Assembly: GCA_016188775.1 (NCBI GenBank)
Contig: JACPHC010000002.1
Span: 1 to 60,124 of the forward strand
Length of the DNA stretch: 60,124 nucleotides
DNA from: Parcubacteria group bacterium
GTDB taxonomy: Bacteria; Patescibacteriota; Minisyncoccia; JACPHC01
Direction: 5' to 3'
The translations under genes were made by a program, and so were the position numbers. Below are positions 34,986 through 47,828 of the stretch, in pieces; within the stretch, counting starts at the first letter, position 1; every line of letters starts with the position of its first letter. The notes beneath the pieces are model-generated. The model was not told the DNA's origin and made no database searches. It saw nothing but the letters and a program-made list of their open reading frames with translations.

Positions 34986-35124
34986 TGCTCCGCATCGTGA
35001 ACAATGTTAGAACTATTTTTGAGAGACAAAATGAGTATATTTACATACCAGATTTGAGAAGTTTTGCTAACTCATAAATCTACCCCACTGCATTACTCAC
35101 TATTGTTTTGAAAATACCACACTA

Positions 35125-35153
35125 TTGACTTTTTGTTGACGATTTGCTACAAT
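35125..35153 (+). promoter_or_regulatory. Strong sigma70-like promoter upstream of the DGR target
   Basis: TTGACT (35125-35130), 17-nt spacer, TACAAT (35148-35153). An approx 165-nt structured leader and AAAGGAGG precede the ATG at 35326. Confidence 0.45.
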
Positions 35154-35325
35154 TGTGGTGTTCATTGAAAATCAGTGAGGCGAGCATTTTGGACGCCAAA
35201 CGCTTGGTTTCTAAAGTGCTCGTCTCATTCCGAGATGAGACCGCAAGCCGTCGGATACGGCTACCTCTCTCTAAAGTCTCCAAGAGGGACAAAGAGAGAA
35301 AATCCAACAAAAGGAGGAAAGTGCT

Positions 35326-35562
35326 ATGAAAAGCACAACCCAAAGCGGTCTCTGGAAAGTAGAGTTCGGTGAGCTTGGAGCGACCCTCAAGGTGCTCCAA
35401 GACCACGGCGTCACCCCTGACCATCTGGCAAGGCTTCGTGCCGAACCAGATTACGCCAAGCGGGTGGCAGAGTTCATGCTCCGAGGTGGCCTCGATGCCT
35501 CAATCCACCAGAAGCTCGCCCGTGCGGTCATGGGCAAGAACTTCTTTGGTGTTGAGGACTAG
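35326..35562 (+). CDS. N-terminal segment of the DGR target, separated from the rest by an in-frame TAG
   Basis: Same frame as 35578-36153. ...KNFFGVED-[TAG 35560-35562]-SALYG-VNFSQ.... Confidence 0.45.
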   Translation: MKSTTQSGLWKVEFGELGATLKVLQDHGVTPDHLARLRAEPDYAKRVAEFMLRGGLDASIHQKLARAVMGKNFFGVED

Positions 35563-35577
35563 TCGGCTCTCTACGGC

Positions 35578-36153
35578 GTGAACTTCAGTCAGAAGCAACT
35601 CCGTCAGGTCGCCGAGTTCCCGTGGGGCGAGGACATCATCAACTCCACCTGTCCGCTCTGCGGTAAGGTGGTGAAGGATTGCCACTTCGCCTTCGTGGGG
35701 CTCGACCGCATCAACGGCAAGTCGCTCACCATCCTGAAGTTGCAGGAACTTCACCCTGTCACGGGGCAGCCGAAGTTTTGCTCCTACGCTCCAAGTGCGT
35801 GGTATTCCAAGCAGAAGTTTGCGAGGGAGACCACGATGGACTTCAGGTGGTATCTCTTGCATCAGAACATCATCCCGAAGTCCGAGGACAAGACCTACGA
35901 CGACCAGAAGACGATGCTCACGGCTAACTACGAAGTGCCGTCCGCCATCACCGAGGTCACGAAAGACCTACTCGTCTTCCGTAAGACAGGGAACTTCGTG
36001 AACCAGTCACGATATGCCCGTTGCGAGTGTGTCGCTTCGGGCGGCGGCCGTGTCGATGTCGGCGACTTCGGCGAGAACGGGCTCCGTGTCAGCAGCTACT
36101 GGGGCGGCGGCCGCTACGGCAGCATCGGTCTGGCCGCCTCTCGGAAGTTCTGA
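35578..36153 (+). CDS. DGR target (variable) protein; C-terminal VR in a C-type-lectin-like tail
   Basis: The C-terminus RVDVGDFGENGLRVSSYWGGGRYGSIGLAASRKF is the diversified copy of the TR-encoded RVNVGNFDENGLNVNNYWDDNRNYNIGLAASR. Confidence 0.7.
   Translation: MNFSQKQLRQVAEFPWGEDIINSTCPLCGKVVKDCHFAFVGLDRINGKSLTILKLQELHPVTGQPKFCSYAPSAWYSKQKFARETTMDFRWYLLHQNIIPKSEDKTYDDQKTMLTANYEVPSAITEVTKDLLVFRKTGNFVNQSRYARCECVASGGGRVDVGDFGENGLRVSSYWGGGRYGSIGLAASRKF
36028..36144 (+). repeat. DGR variable repeat (VR)
   Basis: 117 nt colinear with the TR at offset 478. There are 20 mismatches, 19 of them at TR adenines. Confidence 0.8.
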
Positions 36154-36191
36154 ACTTTGAAGTCTTGAGGGCTTGACCCTCTTGAAACCTT

Positions 36192-36228
36192 GAGCCTCCG
36201 TCCGATTTTTTCGGCGGAGGCTCTTTTC
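36192..36228 (+). terminator. Terminator after the target gene
   Basis: GAGCCTCCG...CGGAGGCTC plus TTTTC. It is preceded by the small hairpin GAGGG-cttga-CCCTC (36167-36181). Confidence 0.55.
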
Positions 36229-36505
36229 TTTTCTCTGACGCCAAGCTATTCTGTAAATGTCTTGCTAATGCAGGCGCGGCTACGGTTTCACCTCGCAAGG
36301 CGTCTCATCTTTGAGATTTCACCAGAGTATCGTCGCCTACGGGTTACGATAGCGTGTGAACCAGATGGAGATAGAACTTCTTGCTCATCTTTAGCGGAGA
36401 TAGCGATAACATCGCTTGCTCCCGAATAAAATACAGGAAAGAGAGGATATAAGCCTTACGACAGTAAACCTCAATTTCCAGTGCCACGGACGAGGGTGAG
36501 CAAAC

Positions 36506-36622
36506 TATGTCACTTCGGACGGCAACCGTGTCAATGTCGGCAACTTCGACGAGAACGGGCTCAATGTCAACAACTACTGGGACGACAACCGCAACTACAA
36601 CATCGGTCTGGCCGCCTCTCGG
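36506..36622 (+). repeat. DGR template repeat (TR)
   Basis: Non-coding copy rich in AAC/AAT/GAC triplets. Confidence 0.8.
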
Positions 36623-36672
36623 CAGTCATTCTCCATCAACTTGAAATACCCTCACTCATGGGGGTATTTCAT

Positions 36673-37023
36673 TTAACGCTCTTTGGTTGACCTAATCCAA
36701 CCACCAAGCTGTCTTCCTATTTCATCAACCGTCTCCTGCCACTTAATGTATTTATTGACATCAGTAACTTTTACTTCTTTGCAAAGCCGTAAGAACACTC
36801 GCAGAAAGTTTAGTTTGACGCTAGTTTTTTCTAACACGGGTAGTTTTTCGGTTTTTGAAAGCTGACTTGCCCAAAGCAGATTTTCCAACACATCTAAAGT
36901 AATGTTTTCGCATCTCTGCCAAAGCGTATGGCGGTCTTGTTTCTTAACATTATTTCGGTAAGCATAAAACTCCTTATATAGCTCGTAAGTTATTTTGAAA
37001 ATTGGTATATCAAAATCATCCAT
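36673..37023 (-). CDS. avd: Avd-like four-helix-bundle protein (DGR accessory variability determinant family)
   Basis: 116 aa, basic and helical (...YELYKEFYAYRNNVKKQDRHTLWQR...LLWASQ...). It is adjacent to the TR and RT but on the opposite strand, with its start 3 bp from the RT start. Confidence 0.6.
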   Translation of the reverse strand: MDDFDIPIFKITYELYKEFYAYRNNVKKQDRHTLWQRCENITLDVLENLLWASQLSKTEKLPVLEKTSVKLNFLRVFLRLCKEVKVTDVNKYIKWQETVDEIGRQLGGWIRSTKER

Positions 37024-37026
37024 ATT

Positions 37027-37445
37027 ATGAAAATCTATAAAAATGTTTTTGAAAAAATCATCTCACTGGAAAATCTGTTTTGGGCGTGGGATAAGTTTAG
37101 TAGCGATAAAAAGAAAAAACGGGATGTTGTTGAGTTTGAATGGGAGCTTGAACAAAACATTTTTCAGCTTCATTGGGATTTGAAAAATAAAAAGTATAGG
37201 CACGGAACATATACTTCGTTTTATATTCAAGACCCCAAACAGAGGCATATTCACAAAGCCATCGTCAAAGACCGAGTGCTCCACCACGCAGTTTTCAGCG
37301 TCCTTAATCCAATTTTTGAGCCGACATTTATCGCATATTCGCTGTCGTGTCGTGTGGGCAAAGGAACGCATAAAGGAGTAGATATTTTGGACAGCATAAC
37401 GAAGGCAGTCAGCCACAACATTCGTAAGCCCTGCTTCGTAGTGAA
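37027..37445 (+). pseudogene. DGR-type reverse transcriptase, N-terminal approx 140 aa only
   Basis: LENLFWAWDKFSSDKKKKRDVVEFEWELEQNIFQLHWDL...FYIQDPKQRHIHKAIVKDRVLHHAV...SCRVGKGTHKGV covers RT motifs 1-2. Similarity ends near ...RKPCFV. There is no YxDD region, and the remainder of the ORF overlaps the next gene antisense. Confidence 0.7.
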
Positions 37446-37509
37446 CGCTCTGCGTTCTACTACTGGGATCCTTCGGGGTGAGGCCGTAGAGTTTATAGAC
37501 AAATGTTTA

Positions 37510-40047
37510 TTAAACCTTAAACGATGGATTATTCACAAATACTTGCTCCGGCTTGTCTCGATACTCTTTTTGCGACAAAACCGTATCATAGAGACCAATG
37601 TCTTCTCCTTCATGCCGGTTCACACCTGTATAAACTAAGCTCGAGTCCTCATATCTCTTAAATTTGTAGACAGCATCATTCATTAATGCGCTATTGAAAA
37701 CTCCCAAACTCACAAGCATTTCAAAATCTTTTTGAGTTAGACCGGTAACTTTCTTGAATAATCCTGGCTCAAGTTTCGTGATCACATCTTTCAATGTCCT
37801 TTCGCGATAATCCGTGAGATACATAAATACTGGAATACGCGTCGCTAATTTAATCAATTTTTCTTGCACTTGTTTGCGAAGGCTCTTATATTTTTTCTCT
37901 TCTTCGGTAAGTTCTTTTTTCTCCTTTTTGGTCAATTCCTTGTCGTTGGTTTCTTTTTTAACTCTTTCAACGGCTTCTGATTTGTTTATTATCGTTTCAA
38001 TGTCCTGATTCAAATTTCTAAAACCCTCAATACTCATCAGCGCATCCATCGCGCCCTTGTTGTCCATCAGTCTCTTGAGCGTGTTGTTATCAACATTCAC
38101 GAGCAGTGCGCTTTCCCAGCGCCGAGCTAGCAATGTTGCGGTTGTTCCGCTCATCGCCATATCCAAAATTCCTGCCGCGTCTATTTGCTTCATGGCGCTG
38201 CCGTCATAGGCAAGCACCGGAAGAAAACTGATAAATTCCGCCACTTTTGTTTCTGGATTGAATTCATTTACATTGAGACGGCAACTATATTCGGCAATTT
38301 GTCGCAATGCCCTGTTTGGCGCAAAATCAAAAACATAACATTCGTTTTTAATAACTTCTTCCTTGTTTGGCGATTTGCCATCAGGATTTTTGATAGTCCA
38401 TGGCGATTGAACCCTAAAGGCCGCTTGAAAATAGGTTTCTGGCGTTGAGCAACTGCGAAGCATAAATATCCCAGTCCACGGCTTCACCGTAACACCAGTT
38501 AAAAGTTTCCCGCAGGTTAAAGTAATAGTTTTTGATTCTAATGGATCATCCATTTCTCGTAGGACTGGGGGTAAGGCTCTAAGGCCGATACCGGCTTCGT
38601 GGCCAGCGGCTACGACAATCTCGTAATCTTTATAAAATGTGTTCTGCTTTTGTTTGAGCAAATTTCGCATCGCAAAGCACGATGCGACCGACGGCAAAAA
38701 CCAAAGCGTATGGTTTAATAAATTCAAAAGTTCGGCGTGAGAGTACGGCATCGGCGGCTTTTTTGCTCCAAGTTTCAAATTATCAATTGCCGTTTCTGAA
38801 AATGCACCGCGAACCAGATCAAGCCACTTTTGCACTTCATCCTCGTATTTAAACTTTGCCTTTTTATCTTTGCCATCGGCCGAGAAAAATTCATTCAGAT
38901 CAAACTCATTAAATTCCCCTTGATTCGCAATATCAATTATTGAATCGGGTAGTTGATAAGTCATCATCACCATCCGCGGTAGCGAAGCATACGGATTGGG
39001 AGCGCTTTTTTCGTTCCAAGATTGTTTCGCTCTCTGTTCATCAGAATATGTCCAGTTATAAATTTGCTCCTCAATAAATTCACCGGATGCAATTGCGCGA
39101 AACGGAGTCCCGGAAAGGTACAAATACGCCTGCGTTTTGATCGGCAATATTTTTTCATCAAACTCTTCTAACCCTTCTCCTTCCGCAAATTTTTGTTCTT
39201 TCTTTTCCTCTGCCTCAAAAAGTTCTTTAACATTTTCTCGCCACGCGCCGTAGTGGTACTCGTCAAAAACAACACAATCCCATTTTGTATCGTGAACCCA
39301 TTTATTTTTTGTCTTTACCCCGCCAGTGCTTTTATTTTTTCCTAAATAATCCTGAAAAGAGCCAAAACAAACAAAGGGCTTCTTCGTATCTATATCTTTG
39401 TGCCAAAGCGTGTTTTCTGATGCGGAAATAAATTGCCAACCCTTAAAATCAACATGTTCTTTCAAATCATCGTCCCAAGCACTTTCAACCGCCGGCTTAA
39501 AAGTCATTACCAATATTTTTGTCCAACCCATTTTTTGGGCGAGTTGGTAAGTGGCAAATGTCTTGCCAAAACGCATTTTGGCATTCCAAAGAAAATGCGG
39601 AGTTTTGTTTGGATTTTCTTTTTTATAACTCAAAAAGTAAGCCGATGTCTTTTCTACCGCCGCTTTTTGCTCCGGACGCATTGTGAAATTTAGTCCTCGA
39701 GTTTCAACACTAAATTTCCGTTCCCTCAAATCATTTATTGCTGATCTAACGTCCTTCACTGAACATTTAAACCACTCGCCTCCATCTCTTTTTACGCTGC
39801 GGCGCTTTAAATGGGTGTGTACCTCATGGTCAGTAAAGGTAGTGCCGTCACTCCTGATGGCATCTTCAACGAGAACAATTCTGTGCGGTACTCGGCTTGT
39901 GCCTAATTGTTCCGCAATTCTTTGTTGTGCATCGCGAACCGTATAACCGATTTTGAGCAGGCTCTTATGCGAATCAACGCCTATCAACTCGTAGGCGTAT
40001 ATTGTCGGTTTAACATCCGGTTTTTGTGGAAAAAAATCTCTGGCCAT
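37510..40047 (-). CDS. T5orf172/GIY-YIG-like nuclease domain fused to an SF2 (Res-like) helicase; putative restriction subunit
   Basis: 845 aa. N-terminus IYAYEL...LLKIGYT...GGEWFKCSV. Walker A RFGKTFATY and DExH-like VVFDEYHYGA. Confidence 0.65.
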   Translation of the reverse strand: MARDFFPQKPDVKPTIYAYELIGVDSHKSLLKIGYTVRDAQQRIAEQLGTSRVPHRIVLVEDAIRSDGTTFTDHEVHTHLKRRSVKRDGGEWFKCSVKDVRSAINDLRERKFSVETRGLNFTMRPEQKAAVEKTSAYFLSYKKENPNKTPHFLWNAKMRFGKTFATYQLAQKMGWTKILVMTFKPAVESAWDDDLKEHVDFKGWQFISASENTLWHKDIDTKKPFVCFGSFQDYLGKNKSTGGVKTKNKWVHDTKWDCVVFDEYHYGAWRENVKELFEAEEKKEQKFAEGEGLEEFDEKILPIKTQAYLYLSGTPFRAIASGEFIEEQIYNWTYSDEQRAKQSWNEKSAPNPYASLPRMVMMTYQLPDSIIDIANQGEFNEFDLNEFFSADGKDKKAKFKYEDEVQKWLDLVRGAFSETAIDNLKLGAKKPPMPYSHAELLNLLNHTLWFLPSVASCFAMRNLLKQKQNTFYKDYEIVVAAGHEAGIGLRALPPVLREMDDPLESKTITLTCGKLLTGVTVKPWTGIFMLRSCSTPETYFQAAFRVQSPWTIKNPDGKSPNKEEVIKNECYVFDFAPNRALRQIAEYSCRLNVNEFNPETKVAEFISFLPVLAYDGSAMKQIDAAGILDMAMSGTTATLLARRWESALLVNVDNNTLKRLMDNKGAMDALMSIEGFRNLNQDIETIINKSEAVERVKKETNDKELTKKEKKELTEEEKKYKSLRKQVQEKLIKLATRIPVFMYLTDYRERTLKDVITKLEPGLFKKVTGLTQKDFEMLVSLGVFNSALMNDAVYKFKRYEDSSLVYTGVNRHEGEDIGLYDTVLSQKEYRDKPEQVFVNNPSFKV

Positions 40048-40048
40048 A

Positions 40049-41563
40049 TTAATTCATGGGGCGAATCATGGATTCGATAAACTCAATTTCTTCTTTGGTA
40101 AGTTTGTATTTTTTGTATAACTTTTCATCAGTCCATGCTTCAGAAAAGTCTTGCACTGGGACAAAGCTATATACTCCTCTTGCTGCATTTTGTGTATTTT
40201 TCTTTAGGAGAACCATAAATCTAAAAAATTTAGTGTTCATATAAGCAATAACGTTTTGGGTAATCTCTTTTGTTGCAAATGGACCAATAACCAAATAAGT
40301 TTCTGAGCAGCAGGAATTTTTCTCTCCCAAGAATGGTTTGGCTATTATCTTATAAGGAAGTGCTCCTCTCTCGCCATATGCCTTAGCTGTATAAACTTTA
40401 TAATCCTTAACCCACTTATAATTGTGAGTAATCACATTTTTATCAATAAAACCATTTTCGGGATACGAATAAATTTTTATATAACCGTTTTTTGATTTCT
40501 TTGATGGCTTAATGGTTGTACCAATACCGAAAGGTTTTCTTGAACTAACAAAGTTAATAAAATCTTTTTCTTTATTTTCTCGAATTTTTCTTAAAATAGA
40601 TATTGCCTTATTGAATCTTATAAAAGTATCTGAATCATTCTCAAGAAGAGGCCTCTTAATAGAAGTTGTCTCTCCCTTTTGTATCGATGTTACATTACAA
40701 GAACCATGGTAATCTCTTTCCCACAAAAAATAACAAATACCACCGGAAATATCGACCCCAGGAAAACATTCGGTAGAATCAAAATAATCTACCAGCTCTT
40801 TAATACGGGCGTCATTTAACATGCTAGACCTAAATTCATCTAATCCCTTACCGCCAGAAAACCAACGTGAAGGAATAATCATAGTTAAAAATCTAGGATT
40901 CAGTTTTTTGGCCTGTTCAATAAACTTTTGATAAATAGGGATAGCACTAGCGCCATGACCCTGATCACTTATTTGATAAGGTGGATTGCCTATAATTACA
41001 TCGAATTTCATATTTTTAATTTTATCATTTAATTTATTATGTATAAATTGATACGCGTGAGTCTCGAGCCCTTCCTCACGCTCATACTCTGACTGGCTGG
41101 CACCGCAAAAAGAGCACCGGCCGTTTTGCCAAGTATGATTGGTTTTATCAAAAAATATGTTGCCCTGTTCGTTGTCAAAAACATCCGTAACGGAATATTT
41201 TAGCTTCTCGGTCCTGTTGGGATTTTTAGAGCAATACAAACTGCGTCTTGAAAGAAGCGCGGTTAATTCGGTAATTCCAATCCCAAAAATCTGCTTGTCA
41301 AAGATGTGATCAATCCTTTTTTGCTTATCAGGGATTTGATCTTCCAACCCCTCGAGTAACCTCTTTGCAATTTCTCGCAAAAACACACCTGACTTGGAAA
41401 CCGGATCAAGAAAAGTCGCGTTTTTATCTCGCCAAATTTCCTTTGGCAGTAAATCTAATATCTCATTTGCTAATTTTGGCGGAGTAAAAACCTCGTCGCT
41501 GCTCAAGTTGGCGAGGCAAGAAAGAACATCTGGGTTGTAATTATTTTGCGTCTTCATAATCAA
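40049..41563 (-). CDS. Eco57I-family gamma-class N6-adenine DNA methyltransferase
   Basis: DEVFTPPKLANEILDLL, FLDPVSKSGVFL (motif I-like) and VIIGNPPYQ (motif IV). Confidence 0.8.
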   Translation of the reverse strand: MIMKTQNNYNPDVLSCLANLSSDEVFTPPKLANEILDLLPKEIWRDKNATFLDPVSKSGVFLREIAKRLLEGLEDQIPDKQKRIDHIFDKQIFGIGITELTALLSRRSLYCSKNPNRTEKLKYSVTDVFDNEQGNIFFDKTNHTWQNGRCSFCGASQSEYEREEGLETHAYQFIHNKLNDKIKNMKFDVIIGNPPYQISDQGHGASAIPIYQKFIEQAKKLNPRFLTMIIPSRWFSGGKGLDEFRSSMLNDARIKELVDYFDSTECFPGVDISGGICYFLWERDYHGSCNVTSIQKGETTSIKRPLLENDSDTFIRFNKAISILRKIRENKEKDFINFVSSRKPFGIGTTIKPSKKSKNGYIKIYSYPENGFIDKNVITHNYKWVKDYKVYTAKAYGERGALPYKIIAKPFLGEKNSCCSETYLVIGPFATKEITQNVIAYMNTKFFRFMVLLKKNTQNAARGVYSFVPVQDFSEAWTDEKLYKKYKLTKEEIEFIESMIRPMN

Positions 41564-42209
41564 GTTGTAAGTAATGCTTTACAGGAAACTCTTTAATGGG
41601 CATCGGTGAAAAAACAGCCTCGCCTGTGTCCGAAACTTCGCGCAATGAAAAAAGTGTCGGTTTATTTGGATCGAAATCAGCTAATTCGCGAAACTCAAAA
41701 TCTCGTCTTTTAATTTTACTGCCGTTTACCAACGCCCACTCAGAAAAGACAATATGCGCTTTGCTATTTCCCGTTTTTAAAGTGAGCGCGTCTCCTTGTA
41801 AAATATTCCGCCCCAACACAAACCTGATGCTTTTTCTAAAATTATCGTTGCCTTTTTCCTTATAGAGATTTATGTAACAATCATCAGCCAGCTTATAAAG
41901 CCGTTTGATACACGCCTCTACATTATCTTGCAGAAGTTCTACCCCATAAATACTACTTACCGCTAAAAGCGCCATTCTTTCAAATTCCGTTTGGCTTGAT
42001 TTGTATTTTCTCTTCACCGCTTCAAGTTTTTTTTCAAGGATCGGCGCAAGGAAATTTCCATCGCCGCAAGCCGGCTCCAAAAAGCGGGATTCAATTCTTT
42101 CTGTCTCGTTTTTGACCAAATCAAGCATGGCGTTCACTTCACGCTCTTGCGTAAATACCTCGCCATGATTCCTAACCCTTTCTTTGGATTTTACATGCTT
42201 ATTTGCCAT
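41541..42209 (-). CDS. Methyltransferase-like protein with a SAM motif but no NPPY
   Basis: HGEVFTQEREVNAMLDLV and FLEPACGDGNFL are present. No (D/N)PP(Y/F) motif was seen. It overlaps the next gene by 23 nt. Confidence 0.45.
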   Translation of the reverse strand: MANKHVKSKERVRNHGEVFTQEREVNAMLDLVKNETERIESRFLEPACGDGNFLAPILEKKLEAVKRKYKSSQTEFERMALLAVSSIYGVELLQDNVEACIKRLYKLADDCYINLYKEKGNDNFRKSIRFVLGRNILQGDALTLKTGNSKAHIVFSEWALVNGSKIKRRDFEFRELADFDPNKPTLFSLREVSDTGEAVFSPMPIKEFPVKHYLQLDYEDAK

Positions 42210-42338
42210 AAAGATTATTCTTGATCTGTTCCCGATCTTTTTCATCGCCGATGAGCCGCACCCCAGTAGTATCCGCCTCTGGCGGAACTACGGGGCAGGC
42301 ATAAAACTCGTGTTCTTTTTTGATTTTATTTTTGGTGG

Positions 42339-43034
42339 TCATTTTTCGCTTTCCAAACGCGCTTTTAATAAAAAGATTGTTTCTTCGCGAAGTTTTGCCC
42401 AGGCCCAGTCCTTTTGGTTTTCGGTCAAAAATTCTCCCAAACCGACCAGAATGTTTCGATTCTCCATTTTTTCCAGCTGTTCCGCGGTTGCCTGCAAAAT
42501 TTCTTTAAAGGATTTGCCCGAACGCTGTTCAATAATTTCTTTATTTATCGGCCAATTGTTTTTAAGGAAAAACCAAACATCATAAATATCGCGGCTCGTT
42601 TTACCAACCCGTTCGTGCATAGCCATAAGCTTATGGGCAAACATATCTTCCCGAACCATTACAAGCATGGAAATACCCAGCAGTGTCTTTAAATCGTATT
42701 TTGAACCAAACTGACGGCGATTAACCTCAACTTTAATATTTTGCAATTTGGTATCGTAGGAAATAATGTTAATCAGATTGAATCGTTTAATCAGTGAATC
42801 AACTATCTTTCCATAACCAGCAACGATCTTCTGTATTTTTTCAAATACGGCCTGTTCTTTGCTTTCGTCGAGCAAATCGAAATCCAAATCAACCGAATCG
42901 CGGGTCAGATCGTAAAACAGGAGGGCAGCCGTTCCGCCCTTAAACCCTAAATGCGGCGCGATAGATGTATCATAATATATATCCTTCAGAATCTGGAGTA
43001 GAACATTTTTGTGTTTTGAATAATCCAATGTCAT
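42339..43034 (-). CDS. AbiEii/AbiGii-family nucleotidyltransferase toxin
   Basis: LLQILKDIYYD...LGFKGGTAALLFYDLTRDSVDLDFD. Start at MTLDYSK; the upstream part of the 331-aa ORF runs through a GC-rich repeat and the AbiEi gene. Confidence 0.8.
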   Translation of the reverse strand: MTLDYSKHKNVLLQILKDIYYDTSIAPHLGFKGGTAALLFYDLTRDSVDLDFDLLDESKEQAVFEKIQKIVAGYGKIVDSLIKRFNLINIISYDTKLQNIKVEVNRRQFGSKYDLKTLLGISMLVMVREDMFAHKLMAMHERVGKTSRDIYDVWFFLKNNWPINKEIIEQRSGKSFKEILQATAEQLEKMENRNILVGLGEFLTENQKDWAWAKLREETIFLLKARLESEK

Positions 43035-43038
43035 AAAT

Positions 43039-43731
43039 TTACGCGGAACTTTTTCCGCCAGACCTGCCCGCTTCGCGTCGCGAAGCAAGGCGGGCGGGGG
43101 CGGATCCGCTCGCCTCGCTGGAACGAGAGCGAAGCGGGCCTTCGGCGGAATAATACTCGAAATACTCCCGGACTTTTTTCTCCATACGCTTATTATTGTA
43201 AACGGGCAAAATCCAAAAAACTTTGTCCCAGTCCAAGACATCCAAATGATCGAAGTGATAGTCCTTACTGATATAAATTCTGTCCAAAAATGCACGCTCC
43301 TTGCTGGCGATGGAATACCCCTCGGCATGTTCAATACCGGCTGTATTGCTTAATACATAATCTTTTATTCGAACAAAAGAGATTTTTTGGCCATCAACAT
43401 TAATTTCTCGGGTCACATACGAGGCAACAAAAATACTGTCGTAATACTGGAAACTTATTCCGGCGCGAGTTAACACGGTCTCAAGGCTGATGTATGAGGG
43501 AATATAGATTTTTGTAGCCAATTCGAATTTCTCATAGTTTTTATCCTTGGCATACAAACCACGGCGGACTCTTATCAACTTTCCGGCCCTAACATACTTG
43601 TTTAATCGAATACTAACCGTGTCTTTTCTTTCCTCGCCCCACAACAAAGCAACATCTTTTGTTGAAAAGATGGTTCTGGGGGATCTCAATAAAATATCCA
43701 AGTATTCGCCTTTTTTGGGTTTATTATCCAT
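43039..43731 (-). CDS. AbiEi-family antitoxin/transcriptional regulator
   Basis: ...FSTKDVALLWGEERKDTVSIRLNKYVRAGKLIRVRRGLYA.... The C-terminal approx 35 aa are encoded by a GC-rich palindromic insert. Confidence 0.75.
   Translation of the reverse strand: MDNKPKKGEYLDILLRSPRTIFSTKDVALLWGEERKDTVSIRLNKYVRAGKLIRVRRGLYAKDKNYEKFELATKIYIPSYISLETVLTRAGISFQYYDSIFVASYVTREINVDGQKISFVRIKDYVLSNTAGIEHAEGYSIASKERAFLDRIYISKDYHFDHLDVLDWDKVFWILPVYNNKRMEKKVREYFEYYSAEGPLRSRSSEASGSAPARLASRREAGRSGGKSSA
43053..43150. repeat. GC-rich multi-hairpin insert at the AbiEi/AbiEii junction
   Basis: Outer arms TTCCGCC/GGCGGAA. Inner arms GCTTCGCGTCGCGAAGC and CTCGCTGGAACGAG. Confidence 0.6.
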
Positions 43732-44702: not shown

Positions 44703-45460
44703 TCGATACCTCCATTTTATTTTTATTAAAGACCACAAACAACGCTTTTGGGTTACCCCGACCGACCTTCAAACCCAGCATATAACAAAAGTTATGCGCT
44801 GAGCCGATAAACTCTTTTGAAAAGAGATAATCCATCGACAGCTTCCGCTACCGATGCCTTGTTACGACTTCTTCCCTGTCGCCGACCCTGCCGTGAACCC
44901 TGATAAACAGAGGCTTCGGGCATTGCCGACTCCCTTGAAGTGACGGGCGGTGAGTACAAGACTCGAGAACGTATTCACCGCGGCATAGCTGATCCGCGAT
45001 TACTAGCGATTCCGGCTTCATGAGGTCGAGTTGCAGACCTCAATCCGAACTGGGGGCAGTTTTGATGGGATTGGCTCCGCCTTACGGCTTGGCAACCCAT
45101 TGTACTGCCCATTGTAACACGTGTGTAGCCCAGGGCATCAGAGGGCCATGCTGATTTGACGTTGTCCTAACTTCCTCCCAGCCTAAAATCCACAATATTC
45201 TTTTAGTTTCTATATTCTGAATTTTAGGCTGGGCGGTCCTGCCTGACACTTGTAACAGGCAGTAAGGGTTGCGTTCGTTACCTCACTTAAGAGAACGCCT
45301 CACGGCACGAACTGACGACAACCATGCAGCACCTGTCCTACTGTCCTTGCGGAGGCCCCGCCTTTCGGCAGGCTTTCAATAGGATTTCAAGCCCTGGTAA
45401 GGTTCTTCGTTTACTGTCGAATTGAACCACATGTTCCACCGCTTGTGCGAGTCCCCGTCT

Positions 45461-45492
<32 letters not shown>

Positions 45493-45588
45493 TCCCAGGC
45501 GGAGTGCTTAACGCGTAAGCTTCGCCACCTAGAGGGTCGATACTCTAGACAGCCAGCACTCATCGTTTAGGGCGTGGACTACAAGGGT

Positions 45589-46633
45589 CAAAATTATTGT
45601 GAAACAATAATTTAACCAATGACAATTGATCAATAGCAATTGTCAAGGGCGTGAATATTTTCACGCGCTCCGATTACTCGGAGGATCGGACTATATCATT
45701 TTCTAAAATTCTTCCAGCGAGATTTTTTCTCAACAAGATACTTTTCAATAACTGCTTGAGAAAAACCGGTTGCTTGACGAACTTCAGAAATCCAGCGTTG
45801 CTGTAAATCAACGTTTTTATACATAAGCAATACTTTCGACAACATTGAAGCTATTTTGATATGCGGCATAATAATCCGCAATAATTTCTGCAATTCTTCA
45901 CTTGAACGAATCCATAACCGATAATACTCATTCTCTCCGCCTTTCCATTTTCTATGAATTTTTCCTATGGCTGCTTTTACGTTCCATGCTTTATTTAAAT
46001 AACGAACTAAAAGTTTTTGCTCTTCATAAGAAAATGAATCGGTGCACAAAACGCCTCGCCGACTGTTCGTTATTAACGAACCATCATCTAACCACCAGAC
46101 CGCCAAAGAAAGAGGTGTAAGCATATTCAACCATTTCCGCCGAATACGCAGCTTCCCCCGCTTGCGCGTTAATGTATACAGTTCGGTTAATGATTCAAGA
46201 GCTAAACTTTGATAACGAAGTTTATCGCCGCCTAATTCATTTTTCGTCTGAAGCCACCAACATTTTTCTCCGGAAATTTCTTTTAATTGTCCTAATTTCC
46301 AGAAAAAATATTCTCTTTGCTTAACCGAATGACGAAATGAAAAACGAGCGTTTTTGTAGCCGGGATGGATTTTTAACGATCCATCGCCAAGCAAAGAACC
46401 TAAAATAACTTCTCCGCATCGCTTTGACAAAAATGACTTGGTCATTTTCTATCTTTATTGATTTACATAGTCTCTACGGGGTTGTTTCAGTTCATAAATA
46501 TGCGCTGAAAAACTTCCCTCGGGATTAACCGTTCGACTTAAACGGCCTTCCCCGATACAGCTGGATGCGCACTCCGATGTTGCCATCGGAGGGGACACCC
46601 TTTGTTCCGTTTTATGGAGCCGGAACCGGATTT
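45589..46633 (-). mobile_element. Group I-type intron in 16S rRNA (inserted in GGATTAGAT|ACCCTTGTAGTCC)
   Basis: The exons rejoin to the universal 785-806 region. The 5' exon ends in U and the intron ends in G. The intron carries a homing endonuclease ORF. Confidence 0.7.
45696..46445 (-). CDS. LAGLIDADG homing endonuclease (double-motif)
   Basis: ILGSLLGDGSL and AVWWLDDGSL motifs. 249 aa, lying entirely inside the intron. Confidence 0.85.
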   Translation of the reverse strand: MTKSFLSKRCGEVILGSLLGDGSLKIHPGYKNARFSFRHSVKQREYFFWKLGQLKEISGEKCWWLQTKNELGGDKLRYQSLALESLTELYTLTRKRGKLRIRRKWLNMLTPLSLAVWWLDDGSLITNSRRGVLCTDSFSYEEQKLLVRYLNKAWNVKAAIGKIHRKWKGGENEYYRLWIRSSEELQKLLRIIMPHIKIASMLSKVLLMYKNVDLQQRWISEVRQATGFSQAVIEKYLVEKKSRWKNFRK

Positions 46634-47413
46634 ATCTAATCCTTTTTGCTCCCCACGCTTTCGTCTCTCAGCGTCAGGAAAAGGCCAGCTGAATGCCTTC
46701 GCCTTTGGTGTTCCGGTCGATATCAACGGATTTCACCCCTACACCGACCGTTCCATCAGCCTCTCCTTTCCTCTAGTTTTGCCGTTTCGGACGCATTTCT
46801 TTGGTTAAGCCAAAGCCTTTAACATCCGACTAACAAAACCGCCTACAGACTCTTTACGCCCAATAAATCCGGATAACGCTCGGGGCCTTCGTATTACCGC
46901 TGCTGCTGGCACGAAGTTTGCAGCCCCTTATTCCTCTTCTACAGTCAAACCAAATTTAAAATCTGGCTTTCCTCAAAGAGAAAAGAAGTTTACAGGCCGA
47001 AGCCCTTCATCCTCCACGCGGCGTCGCTCGATCAGGCTTGCGCCCATTGTCGAATATTCTCGACTGCAGCCTCCCGTAGGAGTATGGCCCGTGTCGCAGT
47101 GCCATTGTTGGGGAACAGGCTCTCACCCCCCCTACCCGTCATAGCCTTGGTAGGCCGTTACCCTACCAACTAGCTGATAGGCCTTAGGCCCCTCCTGAAG
47201 CGATTTCCTTGCGGATTTCTTTAATGATTTGAAAATCAAATCATGCTATCGGGAATTAGTTCCGCTTTCGCGGAATTATACCCGTCTTCAGGGTGGGTAC
47301 CAAAGTATTACTAACCCGTCTGCCGCTAAACTATTTTATCCGCAGCCATTGATATAATCTCAAACCGTTTCAAAAATAATTCCGCTCGACTTGCATGCCG
47401 TATCCACGCCGCT

Positions 47414-47444
<31 letters not shown>

Positions 47445-47828
47445 AATAAAATGAGCATTGATGGCTCGTTCACCCGCTTCAATTTTTCACCCGCCGTAAA
47501 TTTTAAAAATTTTTGGCGGGTAAATAAATTTTAGCGGGCGATAAAAAAACAAAATAAATTTCACCCGCCACCCGCCGTAAATTTTTTAAAATTTACGGCG
47601 GGTGGGCGGATGAATCGGGATAACCCAAAAAAGTTGTTTGTATTTATTCAAGAAAATTAGTTGGTTAAAAATTTTCTTGAGCGATGAAATAAAATTTTTA
47701 ATGTTCTTTCAAAAAAACAAACCCACGAAAAATTATCTTGCATTTTAATCTTTCGCGGATTTATTTATTGACGTAATTTTAATCTTACTTGGTTGAAAGA
47801 TATTTGGGGCTCATACTCACGCATAAAC

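Follow-up and report, generated by a model that had tools for sequence, protein, structure and literature searches.

A 60,124-nt stretch of contig JACPHC010000002.1 (assembly GCA_016188775.1, from a Parcubacteria group bacterium), referred to below as the window, carries at positions 34987-37438 what is best explained as a chromosomal diversity-generating retroelement (DGR) cassette of the Patescibacteria, or candidate phyla radiation (CPR), that was recently disabled. We assign this reading a probability of a little under 0.8. The cassette has a variable repeat (VR) and a template repeat (TR) with adenine-specific differences, an avd gene, the N-terminus of a DGR-clade reverse transcriptase (RT), a VR end that resembles an initiation of mutagenic homing (IMH) site, and the RNA elements; what it does not have is a complete RT. 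An initial annotation, made from the sequence, had identified the locus as a DGR. This identification holds for the repeats, for Avd and for the DGR-type RT N-terminus, but the catalytic core of the RT is absent, the target gene carries a nonsense codon, and homing is not autonomous. Because the RT catalytic domain is missing, the window copy cannot carry out mutagenic homing by itself. It is a degenerate cassette of a known DGR clade rather than a functional DGR, and ordinary in kind.

Adenine-specific differences between VR and TR

The VR and TR form a 117-nt pair at an offset of 478 nt (coordinates in Table 1), with the VR corresponding to codons 235-273 of the 275-codon target gene. When compared base by base, the two repeats differ at 20 positions. 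Adenines of the TR account for 19 of these (17 A>G, 1 A>C and 1 A>T), and the remaining one is a T>G difference at T36596. With 30 adenines among the 117 positions of the TR, the probability that at least 19 of 20 mismatches would fall on adenine is 2.8e-13 (hypergeometric). At the non-adenine positions, VR and TR differ at 1 of 87.

The initial annotation had placed the repeats at these coordinates and had counted the same 19 mismatches at TR adenines and one at a TR thymine. Our comparison agrees with it, and the substitutions, when tabulated by TR base, are far from evenly spread. The two translations it quoted for the repeats are correct, as is its view that the TR is non-coding, the AAC-type frame being closed by an in-frame TGA just upstream. 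An identical GC-rich block of approximately 24 nt had also been described at the 3' ends of the repeats. Such a block is present, but its length is 22 nt (CATCGGTCTGGCCGCCTCTCGG), identical in the VR (36123-36144) and the TR (36601-36622), and the divergence of the two sequences begins straight after it. The window contains only these two copies of the block, even with up to 3 mismatches allowed.

Relatives of the element were collected by scanning the GTDB species genomes with the RT N-terminus, which gave 80 loci (numbered with the prefix L below). Almost all of them are in metagenome-assembled genomes (MAGs) of Patescibacteria, with a few in MAGs labelled Gammaproteobacteria. Among the related loci, 75 TR/VR pairs with adenine-biased mismatches were found, at stereotyped distances. 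The substitutions at adenines in these pairs (n = 1278) are 60% A>G, 23% A>T and 17% A>C, which places the 17 of 19 A>G in the window at the high end of the range for the clade (P = 0.005 per locus). Deamination or another special cause of this excess was considered and rejected: since A>G makes up 60% of the substitutions clade-wide and 80 loci would be expected to yield such a value, the excess is not a separate phenomenon.

Hypervariability among 99 natural homologues of the target protein is confined to those codons in which the TR has an adenine at position 1 or 2. These codons have an entropy of 2.75 bits; the value is 0.70 bits for the remaining VR codons and 1.08 bits for the protein outside the VR.

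Truncation of the RT gene

The open reading frame (ORF) starting at 37027 had been assigned to a DGR RT on the strength of its N-terminus. The assignment is sound for that N-terminus, but the gene is a stub that retains codons 1-137 of ~349 alone. Its best match in the PDB is the Bordetella phage RT, bRT (8ub7, residues 4-121, E = 2.3e-18), and it matches the PHROG RT family at 1e-38. The best group II intron RT, at E = 2.1e-3, is weaker by ~15 orders of magnitude, so that the fragment classifies with the DGR enzyme and not with group II intron or retron RTs. By these sequence comparisons, the stub is a member of the DGR RT clade.

Homology to the RT genes of two relatives, L008 and L001, stops abruptly between 37438 and 37439, inside codon 138. 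The missing 212 codons (138-349) amount to nearly two-thirds of the gene and comprise the whole catalytic core, with motifs 3-7, IGNLTSQ and YxDD; the two signatures of a complete DGR RT, [ILV]GxxxSQ and YxDD, are thus both absent from the window copy. Beyond the breakpoint, the ORF (37027-37638) reads on through unrelated DNA and runs into the 3' end of a convergent gene. The remainder of the RT could not be found anywhere in the 60-kb window, either by tblastn with full-length relatives and C-terminal pieces of the L001 RT or by low-stringency blastn; with longer and full-length RT relatives as queries, tblastn matched residues 1-139 alone. Exact look-ups of the 203-aa chimeric ORF, of the 191-aa ORF that contains the VR and of the 845-aa neighbouring protein returned no record of a second assembly of the junction.

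A nonsense codon in the target gene

The initial annotation took the target gene to be the ORF 35578-36153. This ORF does end in the VR, but alignment with homologues shows that it and the ORF 35326-35562 are one gene of 275 codons (35326-36153), split by an in-frame TAG at 35560-35562. With the 191-aa C-terminal ORF as the query, the homologues, almost all of them 275 aa long, show 80-87% identity over its length. The TAG takes the place of a tryptophan codon, and in a 40-sequence alignment the tryptophan at codon 79 is invariant. The possibility that TAG is read as a sense codon was rejected: 6 of the 27 long ORFs in the window are terminated by TAG, and it is therefore an ordinary stop here.

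No family in Pfam, NCBIfam or PHROG matches the target protein, and a profile search against the PDB gave nothing significant. An AlphaFold2 model of the protein has a pLDDT of 90. Foldseek searches of the model against the PDB and BFVD returned no match with E <= 0.001; the weak matches (E 0.3-6) are mostly to the folds of FGE, EgtB and Treponema TvpA, so a C-type lectin fold is at most hinted at by the model. The target gene is richer in GC (58.7%) than avd and the RT gene (37-40%) or the window as a whole (41%).

Avd and the RNA elements

The ORF next to the TR had been described as Avd-like, and family searches bear this out. It matches Pfam bAvd at 9.5e-15, above the cutoff, the PHROG family 'Avd protein of DGR' at 2.1e-18, and NCBIfam DivGenRetAVD at 2.2e-20, where the score of 72.9 bits is just below the cutoff of 80. 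The start codons of avd and the RT gene are 3 nt apart on opposite strands (CAT ATT ATG, 37021-37029), which leaves no space for an intergenic promoter. The same head-to-head orientation is seen in 77 of the 80 related loci. A transcript running from the TR to the RT, if there is one, would be antisense to the avd mRNA throughout.

The RNA parts of the cassette (the TR, the structured leader and the stem-loop after the TR) are all intact in the window. The short GC hairpin noted earlier after the VR can be recovered as two hairpins, which are followed by a terminator-like stem (Table 1); the region as a whole is more stable than its shuffled versions (z = -4.4, with 0 of 200 shuffles equally stable). 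Between the VR and TR lies a conserved leader that probably forms the 5' portion of the DGR RNA. In an alignment of 72 loci, with RTs that are just 57-80% identical, its columns have identities of 0.5-0.83, and the non-coding interval between VR and TR is conserved to the same degree as the TR itself. An RNAalifold consensus of 68 loci over 36226-36690 contains 91 pairs. In this structure 91% of cells are paired, versus ~45% with shifted partners, and double changes are seen in 63 consensus pairs, versus 32-42 in shifted controls. Searches with Rfam gave no match for the leader beyond chance-level terminator-like matches, and no intron or retron RNA at the locus.

The conserved stem-loop that lies 20 nt past the TR is, by analogy, a candidate Avd-binding stem-loop. 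Stem-loops of 9 bp just downstream of the TR have been described in 207 of 278 Avd-containing DGRs, including those of CPR (Handa et al., preprint). According to the same work, structured RNA must flank the TR, and duplexes between upstream and downstream sequences are widespread, again with CPR included.

Table 1. Parts of the DGR cassette and of its junction, in window coordinates
Feature	Position	Strand	Basis or remark
Left cassette end and target 5' leader	34987-35325	+	Start of homology shared with L008, L001 and L004
30-nt sequence, 24/30 identical to copy at intact right terminus	35074-35103	+	Right-hand copy missing here
Sigma-70-like promoter, TTGACT-17-TACAAT, TG before -10	35125-35153	+	Promoter scan, 10/12
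Target (variable-protein) gene, 275 codons, nonsense-interrupted	35326-36153	+	Homologue alignment
In-frame TAG, codon 79, TGG>TAG	35560-35562	+	Trp in 98/99 homologues
Variable repeat (VR)	36028-36144	+	Base-by-base comparison
IMH-like block, 22 nt, GC-rich	36123-36144	+	Matches TR 3' end exactly; homing role putative
Three hairpins after VR: 36145-36157, 36167-36181, terminator-like stem 36192-36223 followed by T-rich run	36145-36223	+	DNA fold
Conserved structured non-coding leader before TR	36265-36505	+	Conservation, covariation
Template repeat (TR), non-coding, AAC codon-rich	36506-36622	+	1-2 differences from TRs of L008 and L004
9-bp stem-loop GAAATACCC / GGGTATTTC, 20 nt past TR	36643-36670	+	Conserved hairpin in consensus fold
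avd, 116 aa	36673-37023	-	Pfam, NCBIfam, PHROG; head-to-head with RT gene
RT stub, codons 1-137 of ~349, fingers motifs only	37027-37438	+	PDB, PHROG, end of homology
Junction DNA, unrelated to any cassette	37439-37509	.	Followed by 3' end of convergent 845-aa gene (T5orf172 + ResIII)

Sister cassettes

A complete sister of the cassette is present in L008, from Candidatus Sungiibacteriota (CP066690.1), to which 34987-37438 is 92.6% identical at the DNA level over 2453 nt. The two have in common the left boundary, the target family, the TR (1-2 differences), avd, which is on the minus strand in L008 as well, and the RT N-terminus. In L008, unlike the window, the right terminus is present, the target (275 aa) is unbroken and the RT is complete at 349 aa. 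This full-length RT matches bRT at 1.5e-45 and carries GLPIGNLTSQ, and the VR of L008 has a different set of substitutions at adenines (4 G, 3 C and 6 T). The order of parts in intact relatives is promoter and leader, 275-aa target ending in the VR, terminator, RNA leader of ~280 nt, TR, stem-loop, avd on the minus strand and 349-aa RT.

Homology between cassettes starts at the same base (window 34987) in L008, L001 and L004, with unrelated flanks, and in L008 and L001 it ends ~27 nt past the RT stop. Between genomes placed in different CPR lineages, cassettes of ~3 kb have 89-96% DNA identity and their flanks do not align, which points to horizontal transfer of the cassette. Horizontal transfer has been described for DGRs in general (Wu et al. 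2018, PMC5758913).

The 30-nt sequence listed in Table 1 has copies at 8750-8779 in L008 and at 766-795 and 3036-3065 in L001, the right-hand copy lying just past the RT stop in both, and the main homology block of L004 starts at this sequence. This repeat is present in the window's sub-lineage, but flanking direct repeats were rejected as a general feature of the cassette, because 59 loci were no better than shuffled controls, bar three with long repeats of their own.

The same cassette without its RT is found in L004-L007 (Giovannonibacteria, with the target protein P0125). At 89% identity to the window, this version has an intact target and has kept the TR and avd, and its VR/TR pattern is A-specific (21 of 22), like that of the window; the RT is cut after ~10 codons, versus 137 in the window. 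An identical P0125 protein, VR included, is encoded by at least 24 contigs that come from several samples, and the VR of this RT-less cassette therefore appears to be frozen. Changes of another kind were observed in L001, the closest relative. Recombination between its VR and TR (980-1639) has left a single hybrid, VR-like in the 5' half and TR-like in the 3' half and followed by the TR downstream flank, and a different N-terminal domain is joined to this hybrid. In the RT gene of L001 (1990-3039), an extra T in a T6 run shifts the frame.

To describe the target family more widely, 47 determinable metagenomic loci of the 275-aa family were classified by cassette state. A full cassette was present in 23 of the 47, a frameshifted RT in 2, and in 1 the RT was absent while TR and avd were kept. 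In the other 21, at least 1.5 kb of downstream sequence contains neither TR nor avd nor RT. Such orphan target loci include L091-L093, L100, L115, L120, L121, L127 and L130, and for 20 of them there is no TR, avd or RT in the examined flanks of up to 4 kb. Either a distant DGR acts on these orphan genes from afar, or they are what remains of lost cassettes.

Relationship to known DGRs

The window element belongs by descent to a Patescibacteria-restricted DGR clade. It is like the other DGRs of Patescibacteria/CPR in its chromosomal location, its target without a recognisable domain and its layout (target, TR, avd on the minus strand, RT); unlike them, it is without RT codons 138-349 and the right end, and has a nonsense codon in the target. 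The clade is the 'DGR clade 2' of Roux et al. (2021, PMC8144416), who described it as cell-encoded and CPR-restricted, with targets lacking recognisable domains, and the same Patescibacteria DGRs form the 'CPR set' of Wu et al. (2018).

Comparison with the DGR of Bordetella phage BPP-1 (mtd-VR, avd, TR, brt) shows both likenesses and differences. The two elements are alike in the A-specific transfer from TR to VR, in having Avd and an RT of the same clade, and in the GC-rich IMH-like VR end, the hairpins after the VR and the structured TR flanks with a stem-loop just downstream. Unlike the phage-borne element, the one in the window is chromosomal, its avd lies on the opposite strand between TR and RT, and its target is unrelated to Mtd. 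The long structured leader before the TR stands where BPP-1 has the 3' end of avd, and the dominance of A>G among substitutions in the window's clade is a further difference.

In the Bordetella phage DGR, it is established that the TR RNA binds RT-Avd, that cis-primed cDNA synthesis misincorporates opposite adenines and that the VR is replaced under guidance of the IMH. By analogy, we infer that the same biochemical steps operate in the CPR clade. An RNA with the TR and the structures on either side of it would bind RT-Avd, cDNA synthesis would misincorporate opposite the template adenines, and the GC-rich block common to both 3' ends would guide replacement of the VR by the cDNA, with the outcome that ~20 AAC-type codons of the variable domain are rewritten. 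The window VR would then bear the footprint of past events of this kind in its differences from the TR (19 of 20 at TR adenines). On the preferred reading, a rearrangement at 37438/37439 removed RT codons 138-349 together with the right end of the cassette, where a restriction-modification (R-M)/AbiE block now lies, and the TGG>TAG change cuts the target protein short at codon 79.

Alternative explanations

Several observations weigh against the view that the cassette is disabled. The rate of VR/TR differences at non-adenine positions is the same as beside intact RTs (~1%), so nothing indicates that the locus has been neglected for long. It could also be acted on by another DGR of its genome, and two-DGR genomes do exist (for example, L009, and L062 with L086 on one contig). 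The proportion of target-family loci with no adjacent TR, avd or RT is considerable (21 of the 47 above). The window is part of a single metagenomic contig, in which the junction at 37438/37439 and the TAG could be errors of assembly or consensus, and the mechanism is drawn by analogy from the Bordetella system. Because VR and TR differ at just one non-adenine position, either the inactivation was recent or the locus is serviced in trans.

The second of these options, which we consider unlikely, is that the cassette is non-autonomous but live, being acted on in trans by the RT of another DGR in the genome. In that case the TAG would have arisen recently by chance, or translation would begin further downstream and yield a shortened variable protein. 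This would fit with the intact and conserved RNA elements and avd, with the near identity of VR and TR outside adenines, and with the multi-DGR genomes and the many target genes without an adjacent DGR in the family. However, there is no RT elsewhere in the 60 kb, and the VR of the RT-less sister cassette with the P0125 target, identical on its 24 or more contigs, is apparently static. The target of the window cassette has also been hit by a nonsense codon, and selection on the locus therefore seems relaxed. As for a downstream start, no good ribosome-binding site can be recognised in the sequence before the GTG at 35578.

An assembly artefact, with the contig chimeric at 37438/37439, the true RT intact and codon 79 possibly TGG, is in our view less probable still. 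The junction is on record in a single contig, with no independent assembly, and a near-repeat cassette (90-96% identity) common to several members of a community can confuse assemblers. Against this, an artefact would have to account for two independent lesions in one cassette, and the junction runs into unique sequence and not into a shared repeat. Real RT truncations of the same cassette are also found in independent assemblies and samples (L004-L007). Recent inactivation remains the reading that we prefer.

Finally, the idea that the locus is not a DGR at all, but an ordinary tandem duplication beside a fragment of a group II intron or retron RT, could appeal to NCBIfam, where the sole match of the stub is a group II intron RT model (38 bits versus a cutoff of 300), but it is refuted by the substitution table, with 19 of 20 mismatches at adenines, and by the family matches, given the lead of bRT as the best solved relative, the presence of Avd, the lack of any matching intron or retron RNA family, and full-length relatives that carry IGNLTSQ and adjoin A-biased TR/VR pairs in 75 cases.

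A (GA)n tract in sister RT genes

In 19 of the 80 related loci, the RT gene contains a perfect (GA)7-35 run at one fixed site, ~550 nt into the gene, between the sequences '..IxESY' and 'GIPIGNLTSQ' (L024, L025, L028, L029, L034, L043, L049, L059, L060, L062, L064, L067, L069, L070, L072, L073, L079, L084 and L086). The site is outside the window, and the tract is absent from the window's sub-lineage (L008, L001 and L009). The reading frame changes across the tract in roughly three-quarters of the 19 loci, to either of the alternative frames. Within clusters at 90% identity (P0111, P0050, P0021, P0073 and P0093), members have the same N-termini and differ in the length of the tract; some have a full-length RT (358 or 360 aa), and others stop shortly past the tract in the other two frames. 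The VR/TR pairs beside out-of-frame RTs are as clean as those beside intact RTs. To judge from the sequences, this looks like simple-sequence-repeat phase variation of the DGR RT, although PCR or assembly stutter may be the cause instead. A literature search found no paper describing (GA)n phase variation of a DGR RT.

Neighbouring genes

The RT breakpoint adjoins a defence-type block on the minus strand (37510-43731), which encodes the 845-aa T5orf172 + ResIII protein, an Eco57I-type methylase, a fragment of an MmeI-like methylase and the toxin-antitoxin pair AbiEii/AbiEi. Past this block lie genes for tRNA-Ala and tRNA-Ile and a 16S rRNA gene. A search for an attachment (att)-type repeat that would connect the R-M/AbiE block with the tRNA genes beside it gave none, and no integrase was found. 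The 16S rRNA gene (44820-47450, minus strand) extends over 2.6 kb for a 1.5-kb model. Within it lies an insertion with an ORF (45696-46445, minus strand) whose product is a LAGLIDADG homing endonuclease (Pfam, 1.1e-37), a typical feature of CPR bacteria. The window has no 23S gene.

Implications

In annotation, the locus should be labelled the remnant of a DGR rather than an active system of hypermutation. It would be overcalled by DGR finders keyed on the VR/TR signature together with an RT match.

A broader and speculative proposal, which we regard as improbable at present, is that RT-less cassettes which keep the TR, the structured RNA and Avd may persist as non-autonomous 'satellite' DGRs served by the RT of another cassette, and that CPR bacteria may routinely switch the RT off, reversibly through the (GA)n tract and irreversibly through truncation, so that hypermutation would come in bursts. 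The pattern seen in the relatives is that the cassette has been disabled repeatedly at the RT, while the target, TR and avd survive. This repeated loss bears on how a mutagenic enzyme is controlled in bacteria with tiny genomes, a question that reaches beyond this window alone.

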